64,000 nucleotides of DNA, taken from Paludibacteraceae bacterium (GTDB lineage: Bacteria > Bacteroidota > Bacteroidia > Bacteroidales > Paludibacteraceae). Positions 52,899-58,857 of the stretch are shown here, one piece after another. How positions within the stretch are numbered: position 1 is the first letter of the stretch; every line of letters starts with the position of its first letter. The stretch spans positions 11,064 to 75,063 of the forward strand of contig JAKSKR010000003.1 of NCBI GenBank assembly GCA_024401645.1, written 5' to 3'. A program made the position numbers and the translations under genes. Under the pieces are notes generated by a model. It ran no database searches. It was not told the origin of the DNA and saw only the letters and a program-made list of their open reading frames with translations.

Positions 52899-53711
52899 TT
52901 ACAATGCTCTTGCCAACTCGCGGAAGAGGGTTGACAAGTTCTTCTGTGCTTTCAACGAGTTGCGTTGTACGTCTTCGTGGTTGTTTTCAACAACACCCGC
53001 TTCTGCCAAGATGTTTGAAACGACCGAAACACCGAAACACTTAATGCCACACCAGTGTGCAACAATAATTTCGGGCACGGTACTCATACCGCAGGTGTCA
53101 CCACCAATCAAGCGGAAGTACTTGTACTCGGCTACGGTTTCAAATGTAGGTCCTTGTGTTCCCACGTACACACCCTTCTGGTAAGGAATGTCTAGCTTGT
53201 GCGCAATTTCTTCGGCCTTTGCAACGAGGTCGCGGTTATATGCGTTGCTCATGTCTGGGAAACGAACGCCCAATTCATCGATGTTTGGACCGTGAAGTGG
53301 ATGTTCAGGGAACAGGTTGATGTGGTCGGTAATAATCATAATATCACCTGCCTTGAAGTTCTCGTTTAAGCCTCCTGCTGCGTTTGACACAAACAAGTAC
53401 TTAATGCCGAATGCTCTCATCACCTTCTCGGGGAAAGTAATGTCGTCCATGCTGTAACCTTCGTAGAAGTGAAGGCGACCCTGCATGGCCATTACATCCT
53501 TTCCGGCAAGTTTTCCAAATACTAATTGGCCTTTGTGGCCGGCTACTGTGCTGGTCTTGAAATTTGGTATCTCGTTATATGGAATGACGTCTTTTACCTC
53601 TATTTCATCGGCTAGTGCGCCTAATCCAGATCCCAATATGATAGCAATTTCAGGACGCTCCTTGGTCCTATTCTTCAGATATTCGCAAGTACTGTTTATT
53701 TTTGTTAACAT
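52899..53711 (-). CDS. punA: Purine nucleoside phosphorylase (PNP family 2, inosine/guanosine type)
   Basis: ...PEIAIILGSGLGALAD...GHKGQLVFG...MQGRLHFYEGY...VGTQGPTFETVAEYKYFRLIGGDTCGMSTVPE. Confidence 0.92.
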   Translation of the reverse strand: MLTKINSTCEYLKNRTKERPEIAIILGSGLGALADEIEVKDVIPYNEIPNFKTSTVAGHKGQLVFGKLAGKDVMAMQGRLHFYEGYSMDDITFPEKVMRAFGIKYLFVSNAAGGLNENFKAGDIMIITDHINLFPEHPLHGPNIDELGVRFPDMSNAYNRDLVAKAEEIAHKLDIPYQKGVYVGTQGPTFETVAEYKYFRLIGGDTCGMSTVPEIIVAHWCGIKCFGVSVVSNILAEAGVVENNHEDVQRNSLKAQKNLSTLFRELARAL

Positions 53712-54768
53712 AGTCTCTAATTTGTTTGTTGAACAATTCTTCGTTATTTACCAACTCTATTTCTAGTGGTATATAGTAAATTTTCTTTTTCAGTTCCTGT
53801 GGCAGTTTCTCGTCGCACTTCATGCGCATGGCGTCTTTTTCGGTGGTGAGGATGATGCCGTTTGTCAAACCATTCATTTCGTCCGACATCTTCTTGTAGT
53901 TGCGTGCCTTAAAGTTGTGGTGGTCGGCGTAACGCAAGTTGGTGGTCATTTTGCAGATGTTTTGGGCTTCTTGCTCAAACAATTCAGGTTTGGCAATGCC
54001 GCTTACAACAACTGCCGAATGGTTCTTTAGCTCGGTTTCGTCCAGTTCTTCAGCCTCTTCGGGGAAGAGCGGTGTGACCTTTTGGTATTTTATGGTAGTG
54101 AAGTAAAGTGTCTGGTAGGGGTATAGGTTCAACTCCTTGCCAATTATGCGTAACTCTATCGGTTTAACATCTGGTGGACACTTGGTTACCACTACTATGT
54201 TTGCGCGGTCTTTTGCTTTCAACGGCTCCCTCAATCTGCCTATTGGGAAGATGTGGTCGTTGGTGATTAGGTTGTTGTAGTCAACCAGCAGAATGGCAAT
54301 GTCGGGCTTGACGTAGCGGTGTTGAAACGCATCGTCTAGTACCACAACATCGGGTCTTGGCTTCACTTCCTGTATCAGTTTCGAAATGCCGCGTGTGCGT
54401 TTGGCATCAACCGCAACGGCTACATCCGGAAACTTCTGTTTCATCTGGTATGGCTCATCGCCAATTTCCTTAACCGTGCTTTCGGTTGTCGAGAGCAGGT
54501 AGCCGCTGGTCTTGCGTTTGTAACCCCTGCTCAAAATGGCTACATTGTTGTCTTCTTTCAGCATGCGCACAATGTGCTCGGTAAATGGGGTCTTTCCGGT
54601 TCCGCCCATGCTGATGTTCCCTATTGAAATGACAGTGAGGTGCTCGAACTTTCTTTGACTAAAAAGGCCTATTTCAAATAGCCAGTTGCGTATGCTGGTT
54701 CCCAACCAATAGAGGAATGCTATTGGCATTAATAATATTTTTATGGGTAGTGGCTTGTCGTTTGTCAT
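53668..54768 (-). CDS. lpxK: Tetraacyldisaccharide 4'-kinase
   Basis: ...VISIGNISMGGTGKTPFTEHIV...SRGYKRK...GDEP...DDAFQHR. The 3' end overlaps the punA start by 44 nt. Confidence 0.9.
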   Translation of the reverse strand: MTNDKPLPIKILLMPIAFLYWLGTSIRNWLFEIGLFSQRKFEHLTVISIGNISMGGTGKTPFTEHIVRMLKEDNNVAILSRGYKRKTSGYLLSTTESTVKEIGDEPYQMKQKFPDVAVAVDAKRTRGISKLIQEVKPRPDVVVLDDAFQHRYVKPDIAILLVDYNNLITNDHIFPIGRLREPLKAKDRANIVVVTKCPPDVKPIELRIIGKELNLYPYQTLYFTTIKYQKVTPLFPEEAEELDETELKNHSAVVVSGIAKPELFEQEAQNICKMTTNLRYADHHNFKARNYKKMSDEMNGLTNGIILTTEKDAMRMKCDEKLPQELKKKIYYIPLEIELVNNEELFNKQIRDYVNKNKQYLRISEE

Positions 54769-54867: not shown

Positions 54868-55045
54868 AGAAGCTGTTTAAATTTTTTTATTGGCGAATTT
54901 TATGAGAGATTTTTTAGGATAGTTTGAATGGTTTAGAAAGGAGCAATGGAAACTCCATTGTGACTGAAAAACCATTCAAAATAGACAAAAAAGATCCATA
55001 AAATGCCCAATAAGAATTCTTTCGTAAAATTTTTAAATAGCTTCT
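54868..55045. repeat. Long imperfect palindromic intergenic element (arms about 67 and 77 nt around a small central hairpin)
   Basis: Arm 54868-54934 versus the reverse complement of 54969-55045. Perfect blocks: tttgaatggttt/aaaccattcaaa (12 bp), tttttt/aaaaaa, attttatg/cataaaat, attgg/ccaat, agaagct.tttaaa/tttaaa.agcttct. Central hairpin caatgga-aac-tccattg at 54944-54960. Confidence 0.8.
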
Positions 55046-55052
55046 AAAAGTT
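55030..55052 (+). repeat. Left copy of the 23-bp direct repeat bracketing the kinase/receiver module
   Basis: TTTTTAAATAGCTTCTAAAAGTT is 20/23 identical to 57908-57930. It contains the stop codon (cta, 55044-55046) of the receiver gene. Confidence 0.8.
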
Positions 55053-56465
55053 CAGTTTGTTATACTTTTTTGCGAATAACGGATAAGCTCCCTTGGTGTC
55101 TTTTATGTTGTCTACAATGTTGAAAATTTCAAGCCGGTCGCCTTCTTGTAGTGGTGTGTGGGGTATAATCAGGCACTTGCCGCAGTGCCAGTTGCCACGT
55201 CCATCGCGTTCCACGCACATCATTTGGTGCTCAAAGGCATCCTTGTTCAGCTCGCTGCTGCCAATTGGCTCCATCTGTTCTTCCTCTCTCGGTATGATGT
55301 CGTAGTAGTTCTTGCCTCCGCCAACCGGTATGTTTTCTTTCGGGTGACTAGCTGGTTTGTTCTTCTTTTCACTTCTTTCACGAATGAAGTTTTTTCCGTT
55401 CGATTCGCTCTTTTTCACCTTTTGGCACCATTTCATGTTCTTGTCTCTGTCGGGGTGCTTGCCGATGTATTTGCCATACCAGATTATGGCATCGCATAGT
55501 TCAAGGGCGAAACTGAAAAGTTGACGGCTACCTCCAACAGTTGCAAAATAGTCGACAACGTTTTTCGACTCGTCTACCGTTTCGTCTGCCGTGTGGGTGC
55601 ATGCGTTGGCGGTGTTTAGTATCTGTTGCAGGTTGTTGCTTAAGATTTCTGGGAATAGGTGGTCGCCTAGGGCATACGATCCGTATCTGACACCAAGGTG
55701 CTTGGTGTCTTCCCCCGATAGGTAACGTAGCGATTCTTGTAGGTTTATTTTACCATTTATGGCGCATTCATCGGGTAAAAGTCCGGTTTGGTTGCAGGCT
55801 CTGAATAGGTATTCAATAACTTGCCTTAATTGGGTAAAACTAGACAGGCTGAACTCGGTGGTAACGGTTTCGGGGAAGTGCATGGCTTTCAGCACTGGGG
55901 TGAGTAGGTTGGCAACTTCCTTGTCGAGCATGTTCTGGCGTTCTTCAATCGTTTTGAAGACGTCTGGGTATAGTGCACGAATCTTGGTAGTGTAACTCGA
56001 ATCGTTGGAATGGCGAATATTGGAGAAAAGTAAGTCCAAATCGGTGGTTCCATCGGTGTTTCGCTTGTCTTTGAAGTAGAGTAGTTGTCCCCAGTCTTCG
56101 TTGTGCTTTTTGCGGTCGTCGTTGTTCACCATTTGCAAGACCAGGTCAAACTGTTCCATGGTGCCGGCACTTAATACGTACCATGGCAGCTCGGCATGTT
56201 TTTCGCCGAATATCTTTGCCAGGCGTGGCATAACGTAGGCCAGGAAGGTCTTGTCTTCCACGCTGTCGGCGCTAAACTCGCAGTTGGCATCGAGTATGAT
56301 GGCAGAAAACTCGTTGAAATGGTCTTTTAACTCACTTTCTGCAGCCTCCCAGTTCGGAAAGCATGGTAGGTCTATGTTATATTGCTCTGCCATCATTTGC
56401 GTACTTTCTACGATGGAATGGTCATTGTCGACCCAAAGCACTTTCATTATTTCGTTTGTGTCCAT
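55044..56465 (-). CDS. Receiver (REC)-domain protein with uncharacterised helical domain, Lys-rich linker and C-terminal beta-rich (OB/cold-shock-like?) module
   Basis: 473 aa. REC-like KVLWVDNDH (D13/D15), AIILDANC (D59) and PWYVLSAG (S99). The helical region QLRQVIEYLFRA...LQQILNTANACTHTAD...FSFALELCDAIIWY is reminiscent of DUF4145. The C-terminus reads GNWHCGKCLIIPHTPLQEGDRLEIFNIVDN..KGAYPLFAKKY. Confidence 0.7.
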   Translation of the reverse strand: MDTNEIMKVLWVDNDHSIVESTQMMAEQYNIDLPCFPNWEAAESELKDHFNEFSAIILDANCEFSADSVEDKTFLAYVMPRLAKIFGEKHAELPWYVLSAGTMEQFDLVLQMVNNDDRKKHNEDWGQLLYFKDKRNTDGTTDLDLLFSNIRHSNDSSYTTKIRALYPDVFKTIEERQNMLDKEVANLLTPVLKAMHFPETVTTEFSLSSFTQLRQVIEYLFRACNQTGLLPDECAINGKINLQESLRYLSGEDTKHLGVRYGSYALGDHLFPEILSNNLQQILNTANACTHTADETVDESKNVVDYFATVGGSRQLFSFALELCDAIIWYGKYIGKHPDRDKNMKWCQKVKKSESNGKNFIRERSEKKNKPASHPKENIPVGGGKNYYDIIPREEEQMEPIGSSELNKDAFEHQMMCVERDGRGNWHCGKCLIIPHTPLQEGDRLEIFNIVDNIKDTKGAYPLFAKKYNKLNF

Positions 56466-56478
56466 GGTTCTTTTGTTT

Positions 56479-57825
56479 TTAGGTGTAAGAAATGCAGTTT
56501 TGGAAGGTTAGCACGTAGGCAAAGGGGTATTCCGAGGCATCGTTGCAGTCAATGGTGGCTGTTCCGCCAAATCGGCTCATGAGGTTCCTTATTTGGAAGG
56601 CGCCCAGGCCGTTGTGTCCATCGGTGCCTACGGCTGTCGATCCGCCATACATGAATACTTTTTCTTCCGACATGCCTTTTTGCAACGGTTTGCCGTTGTT
56701 GGCAATGGTCAGGGTGCAGGTGCTGCCTATGCTGTTGTATTCTATGCGTATAATGTTGTTCTTGTCTTCAATGCCCGAAAATCCGTGCGAGCAGGCGTTG
56801 CTCACAATGTTGTCGAGTATTTGGTTGAGTGCTTGCTTCGGAAAGTCGAGGTAAACGAGTGGATCGCCTTTGTGAAGCACGCTTTCGCCTTTCATTTTAA
56901 AGTCATCGGTTGCATATTTGCCCGTTTCATCGAACTTATAGGTAAACATTGGACTTTGGTGACTGTTGATGTATTCGCCGATGAATGGGGCAAGAGCAAT
57001 CTTTTCTTTCTCCATTCCATCGCCAATGGTGAAGGTGTTTATCTGGTTCGAGATGATGTTCAGCGTTTCGCCTATGCGGTTGTAGATTTCCCCTACGGCC
57101 ACAGGACGAATCTTGCCGGTTGTTGTGTCATCTTTCAGCACACCGTTGTTTTCTTGCCTTGCTTTCTGCAATGTGTTCCACCAATTGTTCAGGTTGAATA
57201 TGGTTTGTCCAACGGCATGCTTTTTCAGGTGAATGTCCTTTTGGTAATTCTCGAAATCGGCCTGTTTCTGGCTCATCAGCTCTTGCAGAAGGTCTAGCAT
57301 GTCGTTCTTCACTACCATGTCTTGCATTTCAAGGCTTGGTAAGTCTATGCGTAACGAAAGTAAGTCGTTTTCGTCGATTAAATCGCTTATTTTATGTGGC
57401 TGCTCTGTCTCTTTTATGTTGCGCTTCAACTGCTGGCTCATATCGTCCGACACCAGTTCTCGCAACAGGTAGTCTTCGTTGACGACATTGTGGTTTTTTA
57501 TGTGAAAGGCAAAAAACGGTATGCGGTCTACGTAAACGCCTTCTTCCAAGCCCTTCATGCTGCTAATGCGTGCCACCTTGAAGTGGTCGCCGCTAACCAC
57601 TGCCATAAGGCATGGCGATTTAATCACGGTTTTAACGCGGTAGTTGGCAGGACCAATATTCTTTGCTGTAATGTACGACAGCATGTACTGACTCGTAAAG
57701 TCAACCAGCGACATGCATGGCTTGTTGTCTACGGGTACGGCCAGGCTTAATCGTTCAAGCGCAATTAGGTCGATTAAATCGCCCAATTTGTAGGCTTGTG
57801 TTTCTAATTCATGCTCTCTTTCCAT
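56479..57825 (-). CDS. Histidine kinase with N-terminal type I R-M HsdS-like target-recognition domain
   Basis: 448 aa. TRD-like aa ~10-175 (YKLGDLIDLI; LMAVVSGDHFKVARISS; NEDYLLRELVSDDMSQQLKR; LRIDLPSLEMQDMVV). H-box-like DIHLKKHAVGQTIFNL (H199/H203). N box LNQILDNIVSNACSHG. G boxes IANNGKPL and DGHNGLGAFQIRNLM. Confidence 0.75.
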   Translation of the reverse strand: MEREHELETQAYKLGDLIDLIALERLSLAVPVDNKPCMSLVDFTSQYMLSYITAKNIGPANYRVKTVIKSPCLMAVVSGDHFKVARISSMKGLEEGVYVDRIPFFAFHIKNHNVVNEDYLLRELVSDDMSQQLKRNIKETEQPHKISDLIDENDLLSLRIDLPSLEMQDMVVKNDMLDLLQELMSQKQADFENYQKDIHLKKHAVGQTIFNLNNWWNTLQKARQENNGVLKDDTTTGKIRPVAVGEIYNRIGETLNIISNQINTFTIGDGMEKEKIALAPFIGEYINSHQSPMFTYKFDETGKYATDDFKMKGESVLHKGDPLVYLDFPKQALNQILDNIVSNACSHGFSGIEDKNNIIRIEYNSIGSTCTLTIANNGKPLQKGMSEEKVFMYGGSTAVGTDGHNGLGAFQIRNLMSRFGGTATIDCNDASEYPFAYVLTFQNCISYT

Positions 57826-57907: not shown

Positions 57908-57930
57908 TTTTTTAACAGCTTCTAAATGTT
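57908..57930 (+). repeat. Right copy of the 23-bp direct repeat bracketing the kinase/receiver module
   Basis: TTTTTTAACAGCTTCTAAATGTT contains the stop codon (cta, 57922-57924) of the MetH activation-domain gene. Confidence 0.8.
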
Positions 57931-58857
57931 GTGCATGAGCCATTTCCCCAACTCGTTTCTGTCGCTTCCACTTCGTTTCGCATAGTCGTCGAGTTGGTCG
58001 TTTCCCACTTTACCTACCATAAAGTAGAACGACTTTGGGTGCGAGATGTAGAGTCCGCAAATTGATGCGTTTGGCTGCATGGCTCCGTTCTCGGTGATGT
58101 GCATGTCAATCTCTTCCATCTTTAAAAGTTGGTTCACTCTAAAAATTATGCGTTGGTCGGGTATGGCTGGGTAGCCAATGGCTGGACGTATGCCTTTAAA
58201 AGGTAACTTCATCAGTTCCTTCGGGGTAAAGCTTTCGTCGGGGGCATAGCCCCAGTAGGTGGTGCGTACTTGCTGGTGTAGCCATTCGGCTGTTGCTTCT
58301 GCAAGTCGGTCGGCAACACTCTTAATCAGTATCGAGTTGTAAAGGTCGCCTTCGGTTTTGTAACGCTCGCTCAACTGGTCGGCACCGTCTATGCATAGAG
58401 AAAAAAGACCGATGAAATCGGATTCGGGCGATACGAAATCGGCTAGCGAGATGCACTTGCCTACCAGTTCGCTAGGGTGCTGTTGCCTTAACATGGGCAA
58501 GTAGATATCTTCGCCATCTTCGGGCGTGAGCATAATGCCTTCGTTAGCACTATGGGCAGGACTGAACACGATTCGTGCCCTAATGTGTAGAAGGTTTTCA
58601 TCCTTTGCTCTTTTTAGCATGTTCCTGGCGTCCACAAACAGGTTCATCGCTTCGCGTGCCTTGTCGGTTCCATACTTGCGGTTGGTTACCAAAAAATTCT
58701 GTAAGCATTGCTCACATCCGCAAAAATTATCCAATCCATCGAATCTTCCAGGCAGTCCCCATGCCTTAAAGAAGAATACCCAGTCTATGTAAGGAGCAAC
58801 GGTCGAAATTTCTATGTTTTCAAACGTTTTTGTTCCTTTTAATCGGGGAATATTCAT
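57922..58857 (-). CDS. Standalone methionine synthase (MetH) AdoMet-binding reactivation domain protein
   Basis: 311 aa with ...FKGIRPAIGYPAIPDQ... and ...ASICGLYISHPKSFYFMVGKVGNDQLDDYAKRSG.....L.KWL, which parallel the E. coli MetH C-terminal activation domain. Confidence 0.85.
   Translation of the reverse strand: MNIPRLKGTKTFENIEISTVAPYIDWVFFFKAWGLPGRFDGLDNFCGCEQCLQNFLVTNRKYGTDKAREAMNLFVDARNMLKRAKDENLLHIRARIVFSPAHSANEGIMLTPEDGEDIYLPMLRQQHPSELVGKCISLADFVSPESDFIGLFSLCIDGADQLSERYKTEGDLYNSILIKSVADRLAEATAEWLHQQVRTTYWGYAPDESFTPKELMKLPFKGIRPAIGYPAIPDQRIIFRVNQLLKMEEIDMHITENGAMQPNASICGLYISHPKSFYFMVGKVGNDQLDDYAKRSGSDRNELGKWLMHNI

Follow-up and report, generated by a model that had tools for sequence, protein, structure and literature searches.

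A pair of adjacent genes in a Paludibacteraceae genome raises the question of what a DNA-recognition domain of the restriction-modification (R-M) type does when joined to a histidine kinase, and what the product of the neighboring gene does with the resulting signal. They lie in a 64,000-nucleotide stretch of contig JAKSKR010000003.1, the window analyzed here, from whose first letter all coordinates are counted. An earlier reading, made from the sequence alone, had described two co-directional genes 13 nt apart with no terminator between them, isolated between housekeeping genes, and had interpreted them as a horizontally acquired, nucleic-acid-sensing two-component module. The observation itself is confirmed, and the overall interpretation is partly supported. 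The ORF list places both ORFs on the minus strand, at 57825-56479 (448 aa) and 56465-55044 (473 aa), and no terminator-like site was found in the spacer:

56479..57825, minus strand: gene 1, soluble sensor histidine kinase (TRD, stalk/DHp, CA), 448 aa; ORF, Pfam HATPase_c E 7e-8
56466..56478, minus strand: intergenic spacer between gene 1 and gene 2, 13 nt, AAACAAAAGAACC
55044..56465, minus strand: gene 2, receiver-effector (REC, DUF4145/HEPN-like helical domain, linker, OB-like barrel), 473 aa; ORF

The flanks are housekeeping genes as claimed: upstream are PfkB and a gene with the Met_synt_B12 activation domain (MetH_act; 57922-58857, E 1e-87), and downstream the LpxK gene (53668-54768, E 1e-77) is followed by PNP. 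All six genes run in one direction. The window shows no WYL regulator, no methyltransferase (MTase)-like domain in the kinase and no defense gene adjoining the pair.

A restriction-type recognition domain joined to a kinase core

No hydrophobic segment was found in the gene 1 protein, nor does its kinase have a conventional input domain. The AF2 model (pLDDT 85, pTM 0.71) resolves three parts:

57340..57798, minus strand: HsdS-type target-recognition domain (TRD), aa 10-162; PADLOC Specificity_I E 0.004, beta-rich AF2 model
57031..57339, minus strand: stalk helix plus second helix, forming the DHp, aa 163-265; AF2 helices 165-225 and 244-265
56488..57006, minus strand: catalytic ATP-binding (CA) domain, aa 274-446; Pfam HATPase_c over 331-428, Foldseek 3sl2 TMt 0.76

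A protein with 100% identity to the gene 1 product occurs in a Paludibacteraceae MAG.

The proposed HsdS-type TRD is weak in the window protein, which on its own gives just the Specificity_I matches at E 0.004, but firm across the family, where 24 of 33 members match that model (best E 1.9e-12) and 13 of 33 match Pfam Methylase_S. Among solved structures, the family profile also retrieves HsdM and, at E 1.5e-4, the HsdS chains 5ybb_D and 3okg_A. An 'IDLPSLEMQ' motif, whose P163 and Q168 do not vary across the 33 sequences of alignment A2, closes the TRD, and in the AF2 model an unbroken 60-aa stalk helix holds both this PxLxxQ motif and His203. Both H199 and H203, named in the earlier reading, do lie in the H-box, but only H203, the candidate phospho-acceptor, is invariant (69/69 aligned; codon 57217-57219, checked), with K202 and Q207 each conserved in 68/71.

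The claim of a complete kinase core is borne out by Foldseek, which aligns ~270 columns of gene 1 to the DHp and CA domains of WalK, HK853 and CpxA and also returns ZraS, with E-values down to 4e-10. The CA domain displays an N box (N339, N343, H347), a G1-like box (N376, G378) and a G2 box (H404, G406, G408), of which N343, N376, G378, G406 and G408 are invariant across 71 kinase sequences. This is a genuine histidine-kinase core.

A divergent receiver with a probably non-transcriptional output

The gene 2 protein alone gave no match to Pfam, PADLOC or PDB sequences; its AF2 model (pLDDT 83.7) shows four parts:

56061..56453, minus strand: divergent receiver domain, aa 5-135; Foldseek vs PDB
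55434..56042, minus strand: all-helical domain, distantly DUF4145/HEPN-like, aa 142-344; AF2 helices, pLDDT mostly >90
55257..55406, minus strand: Lys/Glu-rich disordered linker, aa 354-403; pLDDT 32-38
55047..55238, minus strand: C-terminal five-stranded OB/cold-shock-like barrel, aa 410-473; AF2 strands, pLDDT ~96

Receiver matches dominate both fold searches: PorX (E 4e-6), RssB and PmrA in the PDB, with stand-alone receivers superposing at TMt ~0.7 and rmsd 3.5-4 Å, as well as response regulators in BFVD. Response_reg and an NCBIfam response-regulator model recur below threshold. The acidic pair D13/D15, the phospho-acceptor Asp59 (codon 56289-56291) and S99 are present as the sequence-only reading had listed them, and K132 can be added; D/E13, D59, S/T99 and K132 are each conserved in 67/67. 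Judged from its sequence, the receiver is divergent, yet it retains the full set of phospho-chemistry residues (Asp59, Ser99, Lys132).

The helical domain had been likened to DUF4145. Matches to this family indeed recur, it being the commonest Pfam match among 121 diverse relatives (11 members, best E 0.013), with one further match in the relative L052 that spans an invariant His, but every one of them falls below threshold, and the helical-domain profile matched no solved structure. The sub-threshold matches suggest a distant HEPN kinship. Conservation centers on R214 (66/67), E218 (67/67) and H291 (67/67; codon 55593-55595), the last invariant in the 121 further relatives too, and N343 is near-invariant. 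The canonical Arg of the Rx4-6H motif is absent across the family, and an invariant Arg-x3-Glu lies on a helix other than that bearing the His.

The Lys-rich linker noted earlier is predicted to be disordered (pLDDT <50 over residues 354-403) and varies in length and sequence across the family. The OB/cold-shock assignment of the C-terminus is upheld by the confident five-strand model and by weak matches in relatives to OB_RNB (5.5e-4), S1CSD-TOTE-2 (7e-4), Rho_RNA_bind (0.007) and S1CSD-TOTE-1 (0.14); C431 and N453 are conserved. The barrel is optional, being doubled in some relatives and missing from about half.

These features bear on whether the partner kills or regulates. One alternative, which we regard as rather unlikely though deserving of weight, is that kinase and partner, joined by the WYL protein in the majority of relatives, form a regulatory cassette that neither kills nor cuts but controls immune genes, whether adjacent (in relatives) or distant (in this genome), much as BrxR/CapW or CapK-CapS do; the partner would then act on transcription or RNA, e.g. 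as an antiterminator via its cold-shock-like barrel. RNA binding is classic for cold-shock and OB domains, and the HEPN-like domain may be non-catalytic because the canonical Arg is absent. However, about half of the partners do without the barrel, and no HTH or other recognized DNA-binding domain was found in the window protein or its relatives, in line with the earlier remark that the usual transcription-factor outputs are missing.

A large family of kinase-partner pairs in defense neighborhoods

With its relatives, the pair makes up a large family that has no name, comprises at least 900 clusters (50% identity) and is patchily distributed (Bacteroidales, Oscillospiraceae, Lachnospiraceae, Erysipelothrix, Treponema). 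Family loci were retrieved by the partner protein alone and the kinase pairing still held: 69/70 partner genes are directly preceded by a co-directional kinase gene, at a median gap of 3 nt (≤30 nt in 63/69). Two loci (L069, L071) carry tandem paralogous kinase-partner pairs, and in a natural fusion (P0165) a dead MTase and TRD are joined straight to the partner, with no kinase and with the acceptor Asp lost.

Most family kinases carry an N-terminal HsdM-like MTase domain in which the catalytic NPPY is lost (0/58 keep [NDS]PP[YFW]), whereas adjoining real HsdM genes retain NPPF or NPPY. The fused domain is thus predicted to be catalytically dead, and sensing would be independent of catalysis. 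A WYL-WCX regulator is encoded upstream in 51/60 loci. The sequence-only reading had overlooked that, beside this typical arrangement, the window pair is a shortened derivative: by all appearances it is a reduced family member in which both the WYL gene and the MTase-like domain have been lost while every catalytic residue persists.

Such reduction invites the explanation that the pair is a decaying relic of a longer system that has lost signaling, and the restriction of the short kinase form to a few lineages agrees with this. We consider decay very improbable, as both ORFs are intact, the AF2 models are confident, and copies at 40-60% identity still have every phosphorelay residue and the R214/E218/H291 triad. 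Moreover, kinase-core identity in the close relatives P0088-P0095 (0.61-0.82) exceeds TRD identity (0.41-0.62), as expected of a working sensor rather than of drift.

The suggested neighborhood check of homologs returned PIF1-like helicases (22), type I R-M genes (13) or AIPR (3) downstream in 38 of 55 loci, and other defense-type genes (YhcG, Schlafen or DUF2130) in 2/55. YhcG nucleases, Schlafen-type proteins and SIR2 were also seen near family loci. The kinase TRDs are unlike the HsdS TRDs encoded in the same locus; therefore, the kinase is not simply reading the site of the linked R-M system. A constant WYL-kinase-partner block preceding variable cargo resembles the layout of regulators upstream of diverse immune operons (PMC13373217) and favors the cassette that only regulates. 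On the other hand, most loci already have a dedicated transcription factor in WYL-WCX, and the block also occurs free of cargo, as a WYL-kinase-partner trio amid housekeeping genes (L010-L012) or as the kinase-partner pair alone (L005 and the window clade). Since the pair or trio occurs without cargo, the partner must carry the output.

Descent of the pair at a housekeeping locus

The claim of a horizontally acquired islet with flanking repeats fails. Relatives share the order PfkB-MetH_act-[pair]-LpxK-PNP, with the pair down to 52-61% identity and the flanks at 62-87%; pair and flanks diverge about equally (kinase 61%, LpxK 62%, MetH_act 62%), and the pair is vertically inherited within a Paludibacteraceae clade. 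The sequence-only reading had taken universal conservation here as the mark of a core regulatory system; at similar divergence, L078 has PfkB-MetH_act-LpxK-PNP without the pair. Because this site is empty while other relatives hold the pair there, the pair is accessory but old.

Two copies of a 23-nt direct repeat (87% identical; 55030-55052 and 57908-57930) are physically present, as is a palindrome, but the repeat was not found at the corresponding junctions of syntenic relatives and does not mark an islet. We rejected an insertion scar, the repeat being unconserved, and read it as a chance likeness of two AT-rich gene ends. The palindrome lies within the 275 nt that separate gene 2 from lpxK:

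54911..54992, no strand assigned: imperfect 24-nt palindrome with nested hairpin, arms 54911-54934 and 54969-54992 (inverted repeat I1)

Its RNA fold reaches -30.7 kcal/mol (z = -3.8), its arm sequence is found once in the window, and an inner terminator-like hairpin lies at 54960-54944, the number of such sites being no higher than chance. It is probably a transcript-end structure of the pair.

The pair has kept this one locus while identity fell to 52-72% for the pair itself and for three of its four flanking genes. This long stay, which also speaks for the regulatory cassette, is atypical for a defense islet and compatible with a domesticated regulatory role. The pair could accordingly be a housekeeping two-component system whose immune role has gone in this clade and which now regulates either adjacent core functions (lpxK/lipid A, the reactivation of methionine synthase, purine salvage) or some different process in the cell. 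The conserved order, the shared direction of all six genes, their matched divergence, and the lack of a WYL regulator or defense neighbors in the window all agree with this. We nevertheless find it improbable: L078 implies that the flanking genes do not need the pair, the nearest out-group copy, that of L005 (39-41% identity), is found at an unrelated locus, all other family members occupy defense-type contexts, and the partner has no transcription-factor output.

Comparison with known systems

That the pair fits no described system agrees with PADLOC, which, over all its system models, found neither Detocs nor any other for gene 2, and for gene 1 nothing beyond type I S subunits; relatives gave scattered single matches and, in long forms, the mad2 methylase domain. 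Detocs is a defensive two-component system of DtcA, DtcB and DtcC (bioRxiv 10.1101/2023.01.24.525353). The present systems follow its logic, in that a cytoplasmic histidine kinase with a sensor part would hand a phosphoryl group to a receiver whose fused effector is non-transcriptional; a swappable effector module and defense contexts are shared as well. Whereas the Detocs sensor is TPR-based, its effector mostly a PNP ATP nucleosidase, and a third gene for a stand-alone 'buffer' receiver (DtcB) is needed, here the sensor is an R-M TRD (to which most relatives add a dead MTase domain), the effector a DUF4145/HEPN-like domain with an OB barrel, and no buffer gene is present.

Homology to type I HsdS covers the TRD as well as the 'P-x-L-x-E-Q' helix that comes after it, and the N-terminal domain of long relatives is homologous to HsdM (EcoR124 M, E 7e-15; Eco57I-type matches). 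Unlike HsdS with its two TRDs, each chain carries a single one and has a histidine kinase as its C-terminal half; unlike HsdM and type IIG MTase-TRD fusions, NPPY is kept in 0/58 and the window protein has no MTase domain; and unlike type I R-M, most loci have no HsdR partner. PrrC, too, guards a type I R-M system, and its output is an RNase of the HEPN class. As in PrrC-EcoprrI and Ronin, a nuclease-free R-M recognition module would serve as the sensor that triggers a suicide effector. Ronin 'decoy immunity' combines HsdS and HsdM without HsdR, plus RonA, and still works with a motif IV mutant, so that methyltransferase catalysis is dispensable (bioRxiv 10.1101/2023.04.06.535777), paralleling the degenerate motif IV in all kinase-fused MTase domains. 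In contrast to the direct protein sequestration/release of Ronin and PrrC, signaling here is by predicted phosphotransfer; the sensor is one polypeptide fused to a kinase, with Ocr/ArdA as a candidate trigger, and RonA differs in being a 61-aa membrane peptide.

MADS, the methylation-associated defense system (mad1-8; bioRxiv 10.1101/2023.03.30.534895), likewise combines methylase, specificity and kinase genes, and the best-fitting model for the MTase-like domain of long relatives is that of the mad2 methylase (13/33 members, best E 3e-18). The match is restricted to that domain, which lacks motif IV while mad2 is active; apart from one weak mad5 match (E 4.5e-4) no other mad model matched, and none matched the window proteins or the partner family.

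DUF4145 is an HEPN family linked to R-M and fused to HsdR or REase (PMC3710099), and in RAZR/PD-T7-4 it is a proven RNase with the catalytic Arg R146 (PMC13017515). The partner's domain resembles these RNases in its all-helical character, its conserved 'G/S-N-x-x-S/A-H' helix and its association with R-M loci, and their oligomerization-dependent activity would suit control by a receiver. Unlike DUF4145 families, every match is below the Pfam threshold, and unlike RAZR R146 there is no Arg at -4 to -8 from the His, the invariant Arg-x3-Glu being on another helix. Terms for a receiver-fused DUF4145-like architecture do not occur in the searched text of the 2013 HEPN census (PMC3710099).

A mechanistic interpretation

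We hold it moderately probable that the pair is a cognate cytoplasmic phosphorelay and a reduced member of a large, unnamed, defense-associated family; its most likely function would be that of a defensive phosphorelay switching on an RNA-targeting effector. Gene 1 would act as a dimeric histidine kinase. The TRD is joined to it via the HsdS 'conserved-region' helix, which continues into the His203-bearing DHp helix; therefore, a kinase dimer would show two TRDs on a helical bundle, an arrangement that type I S subunits share. The stalk may change when the DNA-binding groove takes up or lets go of a ligand, and this change would toggle autophosphorylation. Candidate ligands are duplex DNA, in line with the DNA input that the sequence-only reading supposed, or an anti-restriction protein that mimics DNA (Ocr or ArdA, for example), and a decoy for the latter fits at least as well. 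As the conserved chemistry suggests, the phosphoryl group would move to Asp59 of the partner, and receiver dimerization would pair two DUF4145/HEPN-like domains, with the OB barrel holding single-stranded RNA that is bound or cut. The infected cell might then stop growing, or the invader's transcripts be destroyed.

Against a defensive phosphorelay count, besides the long residence at one housekeeping locus, the absence of the OB barrel from about half of the relatives, the stripped-down state of the window copy, without WYL, MTase-like domain or defense neighbors, and the fact that an ordinary-DNA ligand would leave the sparing of self DNA unexplained. The family is nevertheless large, unnamed and found beside anti-phage genes; hence, the pair probably represents a new kind of bacterial immune sensor, in which a restriction DNA-recognition domain is fused to a kinase and the partner looks like a switchable RNA-cutting protein.

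The locus and its TRD-kinase

The two genes lie on the minus strand of the window, where the ORF list places them at the positions and with the 13-nt spacer that the sequence-only reading had claimed, and no terminator-like site was found between them, again as that reading had it. Its housekeeping flanks are likewise borne out by Pfam, which identifies a stand-alone methionine-synthase activation domain (MetH_act) and PfkB upstream, and LpxK and a purine-nucleoside phosphorylase (PNP) downstream, with all 6/6 genes from PfkB to PNP running in the same direction.

Features of the locus
57825-56479, minus: gene 1, the kinase, 448 aa
56465-55044, minus: gene 2, the partner, 473 aa
57922-58857, minus: stand-alone methionine-synthase reactivation (AdoMet-binding) domain gene, 311 aa
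60000-60499: low-GC stretch upstream of the PfkB gene (GC 0.33 against ~0.45 around it)

Base composition over the pair is unremarkable, no Rfam families were detected in 50-64 kb of the window, and a protein from a Paludibacteraceae MAG is 100% identical to gene 1. The reactivation domain is a stand-alone gene in the window clade too, and forms the C-terminus of a 1199-1253-aa MetH in the loci of four more distant matches (L079, L081, L083, L085). All ORFs within the low-GC stretch are short and look spurious; the stretch probably serves as promoter region for the co-directional PfkB-to-PNP string.

In the AF2 model of gene 1 (pLDDT 85) a beta-rich domain (residues 10-162) is followed by an uninterrupted 60-residue helix (165-225), a second helix (244-265) and then an alpha/beta domain. 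Foldseek relates the C-terminal ~270 residues of this model to the DHp and CA domains of WalK, HK853, CpxA and ZraS (E ~4e-10), and the sequence alone matches Pfam HATPase_c at E 7e-8 (33.2 bits against a cut-off of 26.4). The modelled DHp hairpin with its acceptor His is that of a class I histidine kinase, and the CA domain has a Bergerat fold with N, G1 and G2 boxes: N343, N376, G378, G406 and G408 are invariant among 71 kinases, the G1 box reading NNG and not DxG. Both H199 and H203 had been flagged; H203 is His in 69/69 aligned kinases, and position 199 is half His and half Arg across the family. There is no membrane segment in gene 1.

The proposed joining of an HsdS-type TRD to this kinase core is upheld by profile matches and Foldseek. 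Alone, the window protein gives weak matches to PADLOC type I specificity subunits (E 0.004), and the identity of the TRD is settled because of matches at the level of the family: PADLOC Specificity_I is matched by 24/33 kinase homologues (best E 1.9e-12) and Pfam Methylase_S by 13/33, and the kinase-family profile retrieves, among solved structures, EcoR124 M (HsdM, E 7e-15), the HsdS chains 5ybb_D and 3okg_A (E 1.5e-4) and the WalK kinase domain. The long helix starts at the HsdS hallmark 'IDLPSLEMQ' and ten turns on reaches 'HLKKH203AVGQT'; therefore, the coiled-coil helix of the S subunit is here the first DHp helix. P163 and Q168 are invariant in the 33-sequence kinase alignment A2, and across 71 kinases P163 is present in 52, with position 168 being Q in 41 and R in 21. 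Gene 1 has the HsdS-like succession of TRD homology and conserved helix, with a single TRD as against the two TRDs and two conserved regions of HsdS. The window locus lacks the arrangement of two TRDs with HsdM and HsdR: neither an HsdM nor an HsdR gene occurs within the surrounding ~10 kb of the pair, and no second TRD- or MTase-like ORF anywhere in the window.

The receiver-effector partner

The sequence of gene 2 alone has no Pfam, PADLOC or PDB match. Its AF2 model (pLDDT 83.7) comprises four segments.

Domains of gene 2 (residues)
5-135: (beta/alpha)5 domain
142-344: all-helical domain
354-403: disordered Lys/Glu-rich linker
410-473: five-strand barrel

Foldseek matches the first of these to PorX (E 4e-6) and to stand-alone receivers (TMt ~0.7), and viral response regulators in BFVD also match the gene 2 model. 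Across 67 partners the acidic pocket (D/E13 in 67/67, D15 in 55/67), D59 (67/67), S/T99 (67/67) and K132 (67/67) are conserved, so that the receiver-like N-terminus of the sequence-only reading is well founded. Pfam Response_reg is seen in 8/121 relatives, below threshold (best E 0.0058), and by its modelled REC fold the region is a divergent receiver.

The helical domain, with the invariant residues R214, E218 and H291, is confidently modelled as all-helical. Full-length Foldseek searches against PDB and BFVD gave receiver matches only, a profile of the isolated domain found no match in PDB, and a word-indexed protein search returned family members only. The resemblance to DUF4145 noted from the sequence survives in part. 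When 121 diverse partner relatives were scanned singly against Pfam (24,736 models), DUF4145 (PF13643) was the commonest family (11 members and one further relative, best E 0.013), with no match above the Pfam gathering threshold; for 11 independent sequences to pick the same one of 24,736 models is nonetheless far more than chance would give. In one relative the match spans the helix with the invariant His. This His (121/121 and 67/67) lies in a family motif [KR]-x2-[IL]-[LI]-x3-N-x2-S-H-T, in which the Arg of the Rx4-6H motif is absent: positions -4 to -8 are N, hydrophobic or mixed in the 121 relatives, and position -11 is K or R in 74/121. At least some families in the 2013 HEPN census have the His but not the Arg (PMC3710099), and the absence of the Arg thus lowers the likelihood of HEPN membership without abolishing it. 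In the census DUF4145 is one of the HEPN families, and it frequently accompanies R-M enzymes, either in fusion or as a gene alongside (PMC3710099); experiments have established the DUF4145 domain of RAZR as an RNase (PMC13017515).

The C-terminal barrel of five strands (pLDDT ~96 in the AF2 model) has no profile match in the window protein itself and weak ones in relatives: OB_RNB (5.5e-4), S1CSD-TOTE-2 (7e-4) and Rho_RNA_bind (0.007). It is optional, being missing in about half of the relatives and duplicated in some.

A widespread family with a degenerate methylase domain

Clustered at 50% identity, the matches to a profile of the helical domain number 901 at E ≤ 1e-3 and 568 at E ≤ 1e-10; in almost all of them the domain comes after an N-terminal region of ~130 residues. 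A one-genome-per-species scan with the partner protein only yielded 61 loci, mostly from gut and rumen Bacteroidales but also from Oscillospiraceae, Lachnospiraceae, Ruminococcus, Erysipelothrix and Treponema, a distribution that is a lower bound since two receiver peptides served as seeds for the locus search. With kinase and partner genes found by home-made HMMs, a kinase-core gene lies immediately upstream and on the same strand for 69/70 partner genes (median gap 3 nt). From this strict adjacency and the conserved chemistry on both sides, we infer that a phosphoryl group probably passes from kinase to partner.

Most of the relatives' kinases are ~800 aa long, with an additional HsdM-like domain at the N-terminus (Pfam N6_Mtase, Eco57I). 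We aligned 58 of these fused domains with four genuine HsdM genes taken from their loci: motif IV, (D/N/S)PP(Y/F/W), is kept in 0/58 of the former, which either have FPPM, FPPI or TPPW in its place or lack it altogether, whereas the genuine genes have NPPF or NPPY in this column (4/4). Its loss in all 58 argues that the sensor does not methylate. Mean pairwise identity is 0.30 for the TRD, 0.30 for the MTase-like region and 0.45-0.48 for the kinase core, which points to faster evolution of the sensor parts. A reading in which the kinase recognizes the same site as a linked R-M system was rejected, the kinase TRDs not being similar to the HsdS of the same locus.

In one relative's protein (P0165, 975 aa) the MTase-like domain and TRD are fused straight to the receiver-helical-OB partner, DHp and CA are missing, and the acceptor Asp of the receiver is replaced ('AIVFGPHF'). 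This Rosetta-stone fusion argues that sensor and partner act together, and suggests that covalent coupling can take the place of the phosphorelay.

Duplications and rearrangements of the module were also seen. Tandem kinase-partner pairs occur in Prevotella and Prevotellaceae MAGs (L069:3580-11059, L071:7655-13449); that the entire module is duplicated in this way implies that the cognate pairs are insulated from each other. In the lineage of the protein P0128 (L002/L003:8365-18742) no partner gene comes directly after the long kinase; upstream of it is a gene for an HD-domain protein, after it come three SprT-like genes in tandem and a NADAR gene, and a partner homologue lies ~5.4 kb downstream.

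Genomic neighbourhoods

The surroundings of the relatives are of a defence type. The counts below rest on gene calls from a crude longest-ORF script, and on neighbour families named from one representative per cluster (clustering and Pfam).

Genes adjoining the kinase-partner pair in relatives
Directly upstream, WYL-WCX regulator: 51/60 loci with enough sequence
Downstream, same strand, PIF1-like helicase-TPR protein: 22/55 loci
Downstream, type I R-M operon: 13/55 loci
Downstream, AIPR: 3/55 loci
Downstream, other defence-type genes (YhcG, Schlafen or DUF2130): 2/55 loci
Downstream, nothing recognised: 15/55 loci

YhcG nucleases, Schlafen-HATPase_c_4 proteins, SIR2 and DUF2130 also recur nearby. 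In three loci (L010-L012) the trio of WYL regulator, kinase and partner is set between housekeeping genes and can therefore stand alone.

These neighbourhoods bear on the main rival to an immune role of the pair's own, namely a cassette that regulates the immune operons next to it, like CapW/BrxR or CapK-CapS. Such a cassette would account for the variable cargo downstream and for the catalytic Arg missing from the HEPN-like domain; it fits poorly with the cargo-free occurrences, with a partner that has no DNA-binding output, and with the separate WYL regulator already present. We class the pair as a probable two-component defence system whose sensor derives from R-M parts.

Several of the cargo genes have distinctive architectures. 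The PIF1-like helicase (~687 aa with a TPR tail, e.g. L051:14105-16168, L070, L073) occurs mostly in loci with an OB-less partner, is sometimes preceded by two small ~160-aa proteins with no Pfam match, and may be a fourth component of the OB-less subfamily. Proteins combining Schlafen/AlbA_2 with HATPase_c_4 (with or without a wHTH or Fic-like C-terminus; L049:14408-16102, L067:15149-16693, L054:16569-18047) are embedded in or beside type I R-M operons after the pair, and the same type was recently reported beside BREX loci (PMC12839542). In L035:13144-16293, downstream of the pair, a 1049-aa SIR2_2 protein is encoded between HsdM-like and HsdS-like genes, in the position expected of HsdR.

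A single family match was found in IMG/VR (2.9 million contigs) and none in PLSDB, and this near-absence indicates that the family is not a typical phage or plasmid gene. An 82-kb scaffold from a human faecal virome, labelled 'UNVERIFIED Bacteriophage sp.' (L089, MT835483.1:9452-28483), contains a complete block of WYL, MTase-TRD-kinase, partner, HsdM, HsdS and HsdR, and represents either a virion-packaged mobile element or bacterial contamination of the virome.

History of the window copy

The window kinase has no MTase-like domain and its locus no WYL gene. In relatives this short form recurs between the same neighbours, in the order PfkB-MetH_act-[pair]-LpxK-PNP (kinase 73% and 61% identical, partner 79% and 52%; Ca. 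Physcocola equi and Bacteroidales UBA3297 are among these relatives), the pair and its flanking genes diverging at about an equal rate; the next nearest short copy (L005, ~40% identity) lies in an unrelated locus. The site is empty in a relative that has diverged to a comparable degree (L078:6001-7200), where PfkB, MetH_act, LpxK and PNP are contiguous, with ~50 nt from MetH_act to lpxK and flanking genes 58-79% identical to those of the window. Taken together, the shared site, the equal divergence and the empty site indicate that the pair is accessory, anciently resident and under purifying selection.

The horizontally acquired islet of the sequence-only reading is thus not supported: the pair is vertically placed at one site in the relatives and is no recent arrival. 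The direct repeats and palindrome on which that view drew are physically present, but the repeat is absent from the relatives' junctions and the islet interpretation fails with it. The 23-nt repeat (D1; 87% identical; 55030-55052 and 57908-57930) spans the stop codons of gene 2 and the MetH-domain gene; no repeat is present at the junctions in L014, L015 and L016, so that an insertion scar was rejected, and the likeness of these AT-rich gene ends is probably due to chance. Downstream of gene 2, the palindrome folds with z = -3.8 and occurs nowhere else in the window; the simplest reading is a hairpin at the end of the transcript.

Relation to known systems and a proposed mechanism

PADLOC v2 includes Detocs models, and in PADLOC-DB v2 no DtcA or DtcC profile is matched: gene 2 has no match, gene 1 matches Specificity_I only, and the relatives have scattered single matches with no Detocs model among them. 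Detocs and the window pair have in common the logic of a kinase acting on a receiver-effector (bioRxiv 10.1101/2023.01.24.525353), but both sensor and effector differ. Detocs is moreover a three-gene operon with a stand-alone buffer receiver, DtcB (bioRxiv 10.1101/2023.01.24.525353), and neither the window nor the relatives' loci contain a stand-alone third receiver gene. Lacking both that receiver and a Detocs profile match, the pair is not a form of Detocs; nor did a model of any other described system match it, in line with the sequence-only reading.

The closest PADLOC model to the relatives' MTase-like domain is the MADS methylase mad2; mad2 matches no other part of these proteins, mad5 alone among the other mad models gives a match, a weak one (E 4.5e-4), and the window proteins match no mad model. 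MADS is an eight-gene operon (mad1-8) with an active mad2 methylase (bioRxiv 10.1101/2023.03.30.534895). Profile results and gene content led us to reject membership in Detocs, MADS and CapK-CapS. Full-text literature searches turned up no account of such an architecture; a DefensePredictor figure legend includes an unvalidated HATPase+REC prediction. The family resembles Ronin and PrrC in its use of R-M recognition parts as a sensor, differing in that it would signal by phosphotransfer. In Ronin, methylase catalysis is dispensable and decoy logic has been shown (bioRxiv 10.1101/2023.04.06.535777).

We propose that the kinase dimer would present two TRDs on a helical bundle in the manner of an S subunit, with occupancy of the DNA-binding groove altering the stalk and hence autophosphorylation of H203. 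Phosphotransfer to D59 would then dimerise the receiver with its attached HEPN-like domain, and the partner dimer, aided by the OB barrel, might bind or cut RNA. Two inputs are plausible. One is DNA itself, which leaves the discrimination of self from non-self unexplained; the other, by analogy with decoy logic, would be DNA-mimicking anti-restriction proteins, with which the universal loss of motif IV fits better.

More tentatively, and as a reading that we hold to be possible but rather doubtful, the family could be a new class of immune sensors, in which an R-M module built permanently into a histidine kinase would act as decoy or guard and control a phosphorylation-gated, non-canonical HEPN RNase with an OB domain. 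The sensor would be a dead methylase plus TRD, or the TRD alone as in the window; the signal would be either DNA that is foreign or damaged, or the DNA mimics with which phages counter restriction; and phosphorylation-driven dimerisation would turn on an RNase having its own RNA-binding OB domain. If true, no earlier HEPN nuclease would have been gated by phosphorylation, and no earlier two-component system would have had DNA-sequence-recognition hardware for its input domain.

Significance

Known inputs of two-component kinases are small molecules, light, membrane state and proteins. If the input of the present kinase is the DNA-recognition module of a restriction enzyme, it would constitute a new input class, and would give a handle on how DNA or restriction-system trouble is turned into a phosphoryl signal. 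The TRD-stalk-DHp junction is an attractive scaffold for the engineering of sequence-programmable kinases. The family is concentrated in gut and rumen Bacteroidales, in which defence systems are poorly explored. It would be the second defensive two-component system after Detocs, mechanistically distinct from it, and through its universally inactivated MTase domain it would be tied to the 'decoy immunity' of Ronin and PrrC.
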